A DNA stretch of 6,252 nucleotides from a virus (Duplodnaviria; Heunggongvirae; Uroviricota; Caudoviricetes), in the IMG/VR virus record IMGVR_UViG_2698536307_000011; one strand, written 5' to 3'. Of the stretch, positions 1 through 446 are shown in pieces (positions within the stretch are counted from its first letter, which is position 1; each line of letters starts with the position of its first letter). The notes beneath the pieces were generated by a model. It saw nothing but the letters and a program-made list of their open reading frames with translations, was not told where the DNA came from and searched no databases. The position numbers and the translations under genes are program-made.

Positions 1-349
1 GGAAAAAATAGCCTAAATAGGCTGATTCGATGTGTTTGCGGGAAAAAAATCGGCCCAGATCCGAGAAATTTTAATCAGCGAGTCAGCTTGGGAAGAAATG
101 ACCTGCTTATTCGCACCTTCCCTAAGTGATCAATATTTTTGCTAGCTTCATCTGCTCGCTCAAAGGGAACTATAATGTTGGCTTGCGTGTGACTTGGCAT
201 GTTTAAAGAAGTGCTGGTGGTGACTGGTTGCTGTTTTCCATTTCCACAGAACAAAATCATAGAAACTATACCCAGTAGTTGTATTGAATCACTGACGAGA
301 CAGCCTCATATTTATCAGGACTGGTGTACGTCCAATACAGGAGGTTGTG

Positions 350-439
350 GTGCTGGTTCTCAAATGTGCGCTGGCTATTGCTGCTGTAATGGCAATTTAT
401 TGTCTTGCTGTTGTTCTTATGGATCACCTTTCTGATTGA
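350..439 (+). CDS. Candidate 29-aa hydrophobic peptide (VLVLKCALAIAAVMAIYCLAVVLMDHLSD), GTG start
   Basis: Consensus Shine-Dalgarno AGGAGG at 339-344 sits 5 nt before GTG 350; ORF runs to TGA 437-439; product is a single predicted transmembrane helix. It overlaps, in another frame, the Cys-rich 78-aa track ORF 199..435, which has no SD. Not recognised as a known family. Confidence 0.3.
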   Translation: MLVLKCALAIAAVMAIYCLAVVLMDHLSD

Positions 440-446
440 TTTCATA

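Follow-up and report, generated by a model that had tools for sequence, protein, structure and literature searches.

Which gene, if any, occupies the few hundred nucleotides upstream of the toxin gene hok in a lambdoid prophage of Escherichia coli? The stretch considered here, called the window in the following, comprises 6252 bp of the virus record IMGVR_UViG_2698536307_000011 and covers the early-right/nin-Q part of an E. coli prophage of the lambdoid, Qin/mEp460-like type. In its interval 130-440, the original prediction had noted two small open reading frames (ORFs) that compete with each other, one for a hydrophobic peptide of 29 amino acids behind a consensus Shine-Dalgarno (SD) sequence, and a longer, cysteine-rich one in another frame. 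It had leaned toward the former, with the suggestion that a second toxic peptide might lie beside hok. Our comparisons likewise favor the shorter frame, which we consider to be a genuine gene for a small hydrophobic peptide and part of a self-contained prophage module. The features concerned are:

339-344, plus strand: Shine-Dalgarno sequence AGGAGG.
350-439, plus strand: small protein gene, with the GTG start codon at 350-352, 29 codons (MLVLKCALAIAAVMAIYCLAVVLMDHLSD) and the TGA stop codon at 437-439.
199-435, plus strand: cysteine-rich ORF of 78 amino acids, from ATG199 to TGA435, which is not a gene.

AGGAGG, GTG 350 and the 29-codon ORF are all found where they had been reported, the spacer between the SD sequence and the start codon being 5 nucleotides (nt) long (TTGTG). 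A second in-frame GTG is located at 347, and the ORF list therefore gives 347..439 with 30 amino acids rather than 29. The window was compared with 101 related loci (102 sequences altogether, individual loci being referred to by L numbers below), of which 66 are distinct over 130-660 and which represent 22 distinct alleles of 350-439. The GGAG core of the SD sequence, the TGA stop codon and a start codon (GTG or ATG) at 350 are invariant in all 102 sequences, and the SD-to-start spacing is 5 nt in 100 of them. The most divergent copy, from the invasion plasmid of Shigella (pINV), has ATG in place of the GTG start. About half of the sequences lack GTG 347, and since it is not conserved, the start codon is assigned to 350.

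The 29-codon frame is intact and free of indels in the window and in all 101 loci, that is, in all 22 alleles, while the number of distinct gap runs per 100 nt in the flanks is 13 (160-280), 4 (281-349) and 7 (440-481). Nucleotide diversity at codon positions 1, 2 and 3 is 0.035, 0.025 and 0.110, respectively, the value for the third position being similar to that of the adjacent non-coding hok promoter and leader (ca 0.087), and the corresponding minimum numbers of substitutions are 15, 6 and 24. The pooled Nei-Gojobori ratio of nonsynonymous to synonymous differences (pN/pS) is 0.28 in this frame. The other two frames of the plus strand have 0.63 and 1.15, and those of the reverse strand 0.47-1.09. 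The replacements that do occur are conservative (A/V/T/I, D/E, L/F), 15 of the 29 positions are invariant among nine representative variants, and at the nucleotide level 350-439 is very highly conserved (0.92-0.99 in bins of 10 nt). Judged from these patterns, the 29-codon frame is under purifying selection and is a genuine protein-coding gene. The earlier preference for the peptide behind the SD sequence is thereby borne out, both by the codon-position and indel signature of selection and by the conserved SD sequence, spacing and start; across related prophages, the synonymous-site patterns speak for this frame rather than for neither. A 12-mer, ATATTTATCAGG, which had seemed invariant in the first 15 loci, was dropped, being present in exact form in only 66 of the 102 sequences of the larger set.

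The encoded peptide, MLVLKCALAIAAVMAIYCLAVVLMD(H/R)LSD, has 29 amino acids and a grand average of hydropathy (GRAVY) of 1.86, in agreement with the earlier description of a hydrophobic peptide, and it is of a size seen in toxins. The mean Kyte-Doolittle hydropathy is 2.7 over residues 6-24, and the apolar stretch of 19-23 residues corresponds to one hydrophobic helix of transmembrane length (residues ca 2-24). K5 is located close to the N-terminus, and the C-terminal tail (D-H/R-L-S-D) is net-acidic.

Searches for relatives gave little. In NCBIfam, Pfam, PHROGs and PADLOC nothing above noise was found for the 29/30-amino-acid ORF, the 78-amino-acid ORF or the minus-strand ORFs of 59 and 61 amino acids, and there was no Pfam match at E ≤ 1, the Hok/Gef family PF01848 included. 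A sequence profile search yielded no match in the PDB, BLASTP of the peptide against the HokD of the window gave no alignment at E ≤ 100, and phmmer with the 30-amino-acid version against 1.84 billion representatives retrieved only the same ORF with spurious N-terminal extensions. The K-12 protein YnfS, also of 29 amino acids and encoded in Qin, was considered as a relative and discarded, as it shows no similarity.

The gene itself has been deposited several times. The Prokaryotic Genome Annotation Pipeline (PGAP) annotates it in L007 as a 29-amino-acid hypothetical protein (WP_000960667.1), the allele of the window is deposited as a 'membrane protein' (APK03751.1), and further deposits are ACT39199.1 (strain REL606), ACT43394.1 (BL21(DE3)) and an 'Uncharacterised protein' of S. 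flexneri. The database labels, all 'membrane protein' or 'hypothetical protein', come from independent gene callers and depositors. A full-text literature search with part of the peptide sequence returned no paper, and nothing about the small ORF was found in the literature on hokD, small membrane proteins, hokW and Pas small RNAs (sRNAs). We regard the product as a putative small membrane protein that is uncharacterized and unstudied, already deposited but inconsistently annotated.

Small single-pass inner-membrane proteins known from E. coli include KdpF, AcrZ, MgtS, YohP and CydX. The peptide has in common with them a length below 50 amino acids, one transmembrane helix (predicted in the present case) and short charged termini, and their genes, like this one, are recognizable only by the SD sequence, the start codon and codon-level conservation, and annotation pipelines overlook them or call them inconsistently. 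Those proteins are, however, chromosomally encoded and mostly conserved across Enterobacteriaceae, and their partners are known, whereas the small gene is restricted to prophages of Escherichia and Shigella and has no known partner.

Directly 3' of the small gene lies the hok/sok locus, with the following parts:

482-892, plus strand: hok/sok type I toxin-antitoxin locus, assigned from Rfam, the ORFs, the hokD annotation in the 100%-identical locus L001 and a terminator scan.
482-656, plus strand: hok mRNA leader (Rfam RF01794, 114 bits).
594-806, plus strand: mok.
651-806, plus strand: hokD, annotated in the 100%-identical L001.
875-892, plus strand: terminator of the locus, from the terminator scan.

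The small gene does not depend on this neighbor for its presence. A core of about 281-455 occurs between alternative flanks, two on the left and two on the right that are unrelated to each other, and all four pairings are represented: the window-type left flank with hok to the right (the window and most loci), a QueH-type left flank with hok (L012 and L013), the window-type left flank with a DUF1971-type right flank (L019), and the QueH-type with the DUF1971-type (L006). A complete hok follows directly in 90 of the 101 loci. On Shigella pINV, hok is reduced to its promoter and a few dozen nucleotides at the 5' end of the leader, while the ORF and its promoter candidate are intact, and many hok loci elsewhere, for example in Shiga toxin (Stx) phages, show homology only from ca 455-463 onward. 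As the core exists with or without hok and hok exists without the core, the two units are separable, and the small gene with its surroundings (ca 281-455) can be described, from these comparisons, as a self-contained module.

In the two loci with a DUF1971-type right flank, an unrelated segment (2660-2900 in L006, 3085-3300 in L019) replaces hok/sok beside a minus-strand DUF1971 gene, the junction being located ca 16 nt past the stop codon of the small gene. In three other loci (L021, L047 and L048), the hok alignment ends after 161 nt (window ca 642), close to the contig ends without reaching them; hok may be truncated or rearranged in these loci.

On the left side the variation is much larger. 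Of the DNA upstream of ca 160, 37 unrelated 1-kb classes can be distinguished among the 99 loci that extend far enough, with genes on either strand, and the annotated cargo includes SIR2 family proteins, DUF4145, SMEK, S-adenosylmethionine (SAM) methyltransferases, QueH, an acetyltransferase and a 'chaperonin'. Together, the small gene and hok make up the conserved right-hand border of a hypervariable hotspot for cargo. The location at an early-right site of Qin/mEp460 type and a plausible promoter of its own are shared with the morons and cargo genes that lambdoid prophages carry between the replication genes and nin/Q; unlike these, the small gene is part of the conserved flank, is not variable and has no terminator of its own. 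Several of the cargo genes look like anti-phage defense genes.

Three elements were considered as promoters of the small gene or its neighbor:

284-312, plus strand: candidate sigma-70 promoter of the small gene, TTGAAT (284-289), 17-nt spacer, CATATT (307-312).
171-176, plus strand: TATAAT hexamer, allele-specific and not a conserved promoter element.
447-475, plus strand: hok promoter, from the promoter scan, TTGGCG (447-452), 17-nt spacer, TAGAAT (470-475).

Promoter candidates were ranked by a position-weight matrix scan of ten diverse alleles. TTGAAT-17-CATATT is the best plus-strand candidate in eight of them and the second best in one, copies of only 78-80% identity included, while in the tenth its -35 element is destroyed. 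CATATT is invariant in all 102 sequences, TTGAAT or TTGAAG is present at -35 in 85, and by matrix score the candidate is about equal to the neighboring hok promoter, which has TTGGCG in 93 and TAGAAT in 97 of the sequences. We take 284-312 to be the putative promoter of the small gene itself, with transcription predicted to start near 318-320. The gene is, moreover, co-oriented with the early-right operon of the phage, and would therefore be transcribed in any case on induction.

The perfect TATAAT at 171-176, which had been suggested to drive either of the two ORFs, is indeed present in the window, but it is not a conserved signal: the hexamer reads TAGAAG in 54 of the 102 sequences and TATAAT in only 21, the rest having other variants or deletions, and its best -35 partner is weak (TTCATC). 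We do not regard it as a functional feature. A minus-strand promoter candidate, (G/T)TGATT-16-TATAGT at window 265-292, shares sequence with the -35 element of the plus-strand candidate and is directed towards the cargo. Its highest scores are reached in the TTGATT alleles (L098 and L085 types), and it could drive leftward cargo genes.

The explanation that we consider best, with a probability of roughly 0.7, is that 350-439 is a genuine gene for a membrane peptide, a self-contained module that serves as an accessory of the membrane-acting functions of the prophage. In Escherichia and Shigella, the module is found in lambdoid prophages and in phages of Qin, mEp460 and Tritos type, usually directly 5' of hok/sok. 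Transcription would proceed from the sigma-70-like promoter at 284-312 and/or by probable read-through of the early-right operon, and translation would start at GTG 350, behind the consensus AGGAGG. The peptide would then insert into the inner membrane and act by helix-helix contacts, either with itself or with a membrane protein of the host or the phage. If we commit ourselves to a guess, its role would be that of a small membrane-acting accessory of prophage host-killing, lysis or exclusion, like its neighbor Hok; a housekeeping regulator role is not thought likely. If the peptide is membrane-active, prophages of the present kind carry two adjacent membrane-targeting peptides. This would be relevant to the part that Hok-type loci play in phage release (PMC8621323), and to host killing or exclusion by prophages.

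It is important to point out that several observations weigh against this explanation. That the gene is transcribed and translated and that its product enters the membrane is what we infer from the sequence, and the proposed role is drawn from context only, no homologue or family match giving a functional handle. The 22 alleles are closely related, most being more than 90% identical, and the substitution counts are accordingly small and not phylogenetically independent. The 284-312 promoter matches 8 of 12 consensus positions, which is below the threshold of the promoter scan, and its -35 element is destroyed (TCTCAT) in 11 of the 102 sequences, which still keep the ORF. The terminator scan revealed no intrinsic terminator between the stop codon of the small gene and hok. 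Finally, conservation is not concentrated on one face of the helix (permutation p = 0.16).

The alternative that survives best is that the peptide is the toxin of a second, undescribed type I system beside hok/sok, controlled by an RNA antitoxin and/or by occlusion of the SD sequence. The size, the hydrophobicity and the strong SD sequence of the peptide are typical of type I toxins, and the gene adjoins a proven family of this type; hokW-sokW of prophage Sp5 assists in lysis and in the release of phage (PMC8621323). Like Hok/Gef, TisB, Ldr, Ibs, ShoB, ZorO and DinQ, it encodes a very small hydrophobic peptide with a single helix behind a strong ribosome-binding site, and it resides on a mobile element, directly beside hok/sok. 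TisB and ZorO likewise have 29 amino acids. There is also a possible basis for the occlusion, as RNAalifold predicts a helix between the SD sequence (338-344) and the last codons of the ORF (428-434). In 20 alleles, 99% of the cells of this helix are paired and each one-sided change keeps a standard pair; however, the helix shows no compensatory change, the structure was derived from the same alignment, and the shuffling control was uninformative. A 'terminator-like' hairpin at 374-393 was dismissed, as it lies inside the ORF and its pairing is not kept in L006.

Against a type I toxin stands the peptide itself, for which neither sequence nor profile comparison gives a link to Hok/Gef, TisB, Ldr, Ibs, ShoB, ZorO or DinQ, the searches in Pfam, NCBIfam, PHROG and PADLOC and the BLASTP comparison with Hok having given no toxin family match. 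Most E. coli type I toxins have a basic or polar C-terminal tail, unlike the acidic one found here. In contrast to type I toxin loci, furthermore, no candidate for an antitoxin RNA was recognized for the small gene, and the predicted folding of its mRNA is not unusual. Rfam (130-440, both strands, E ≤ 1) detected no RNA, and a consensus scan of 24-1000 no minus-strand promoter or terminator. Complementarity of at least 9 nt to 300-445 was found within the window only as chance matches in distant coding regions, the search for inverted and direct repeats produced no candidate, and folding is no more stable than that of shuffled sequences (z = -0.38 for the sense strand, 319-445, and 0.01 for the antisense strand). 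None of these approaches thus points to an antitoxin RNA, although an unconventional one could escape a search of this kind. On balance, we find a second type I system unlikely. The same rather low weight is given to two wider readings, namely that the gene founds a new type I or type I-like family and forms a tandem two-toxin cassette with hok/sok, silenced by the SD:428-434 pairing and/or by an unrecognized RNA, or that the peptide is a membrane partner that tunes Hok.

A different possibility is that the ORF acts in cis, such that its transcription or translation into the hok promoter modulates hok, by occlusion or by a 5'-extended, misfolding mRNA. The arrangement would permit this: the hok -35 element begins 8 nt past the stop codon of the small gene with no terminator in between, and hok is the direct 3' neighbor in most of the loci, as noted above. 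However, the amino-acid sequence itself is selected, as seen from the pN/pS of 0.28 and the conservative replacements, and the ORF remains intact where hok is absent (L006 and L019) or truncated (Shigella pINV). Many hok loci, in turn, lack the upstream unit, their homology setting in only at ca 455-463. A purely cis-acting role is therefore disfavored, and we consider it very improbable.

Alternatively, the region could be non-coding, either a recombination linker at a module boundary or DNA that has spread recently together with hok, with a fortuitous reading frame. It is true that the unit sits exactly at the mosaic junctions of alternative left and right flanks, that the high nucleotide conservation per bin would fit a linker or a recent spread, and that chance can keep a frame of 29 codons open. 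A non-coding linker would not, however, be expected to show a three-fold higher diversity at codon position 3, to be devoid of indels between two flanks in which they are frequent, to exchange its GTG start for ATG or to keep a fixed SD spacing. With the selection on the amino acids and the retention of the ORF in the absence of hok, the chances of this explanation are slim.

There remains the 78-amino-acid ORF, which is the longest in the interval and has been deposited by gene callers as a hypothetical protein. It is present at 199-435 as described, with 12 cysteines rather than the 11 that had been counted. ATG199 is found in 21 of the 102 sequences, most of the others having GTA, and many alleles break the frame by a 14-nt deletion, by indels of 1-2 nt or by stop codons; the deposited versions range from 47 to 98 amino acids. 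No SD sequence precedes it, no family match rises above noise, and over the overlap with the small gene its pN/pS is 1.15. The cysteine-rich tail simply results from reading the codons of the hydrophobic peptide, rich in GCT, GTT and TGT, in the +2 frame. With these observations, and with the selection acting on the other frame and its retention without hok, there is practically no chance that the 78-amino-acid ORF is a real gene, and it is best seen as an out-of-frame reading of the small gene and of non-coding DNA upstream, evidently without function. This removes a false lead, the cysteine-rich ORF having been deposited many times as a hypothetical protein.

How widespread the small gene is can be seen from complete E. 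coli genomes, 3060 of 5426 of which contain DNA like window 122-480, with at least 80% of the region in 1665 of them. Among the rows listed for these genomes, it is annotated only once. Strains that carry the element include BL21(DE3), REL606, LF82, UTI89 and, on pINV, S. flexneri M90T. In IMG/VR, a scan confirmed 240 loci, and 80 of these were retained; the element is also present in the phage records Evi, Tritos, mEp460_ev081 and HannyBb, Tritos being an inducible phage of the Crohn's-associated strain LF82 (PMC9928086).

A copy with 78.6% identity is found on the Shigella invasion plasmids, essentially on every one sampled, ca 250 bp 5' of icsP. In pWR501 (L004) this copy is located at 3001-3286 and the icsP protease gene at 3480-4427. 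Of the 144 plasmid records that match the region, 124 are from Shigella. A scan with a degenerate form of the peptide, using one genome per species for 185,579 species, returned only Escherichia, Shigella and three metagenome bins named for other genera, which are probably mis-binned.

Most small-protein data come from E. coli K-12. The Qin prophage of K-12 does not contain the element, relBE abutting hokD there, and surveys of small proteins may have missed the gene for this reason. Its importance lies mainly in being widespread and overlooked, a result that is useful to the specialist rather than surprising.

At its left end, the window does not consist of native prophage DNA:

1-121, plus strand: right-hand end of an insertion sequence of the IS5 family; this stretch is collinear with the 3' terminus of the ISKpn26 (IS5-like) element annotated in L002.
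106-121: IS5-family terminal inverted repeat, cttattcgcaccttcc.
122-125: CTAA, target site of the IS5-family insertion, based on the uninterrupted allele L001.

L001, an allele without the insertion sequence, crosses the junction as ...gcatcCTAAgtgatcaat, straight through CTAA, and the genomic matches of 100% identity all begin at window 121. Native DNA therefore starts only at 122, and the interval singled out by the original prediction (130-440) begins 8 nt inside it. The IS5-family end lies outside the module of the small gene and cuts short the native upstream region. Strain 102651 (L002) has an independent ISKpn26/IS5-like insertion ca 55 bp further to the right, at TTAG (window ca 178-181), and the window and L002 together thus show two separate IS5-family insertions within 60 bp of each other, upstream of the small gene.

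At hok/sok, the RF01794 ('sok') model matches the plus strand at 482-656, where it coincides with the hok mRNA leader, whereas Sok is transcribed from the other strand, on which the match reaches only 19.5 bits. Annotations copied from this model may be reversed in strand.

The hok/sok locus is followed in the window by a rem-like ORF, a DUF968 gene, rusA and the gene of antiterminator Q, and further 3' by three transfer RNAs (tRNAs), a TerB pseudogene, an STnc100-type sRNA and the start of a sialate esterase gene. The STnc100 match (RF02076, 100.8 bits) is located at 4963-5135, just 5' of the sialate esterase gene. According to a 2026 preprint, STnc100 is related to the PasD sRNAs, and the PasA and PasC sRNAs are found near RusA and TerB genes like those in the window (10.64898/2026.05.13.724894). 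The TerB-family ORF, at 4363-4795 and 3' of the three tRNAs, contains an in-frame TAG at ca 4498-4500, and in the identical L001 it is annotated as a pseudogene with an internal stop.

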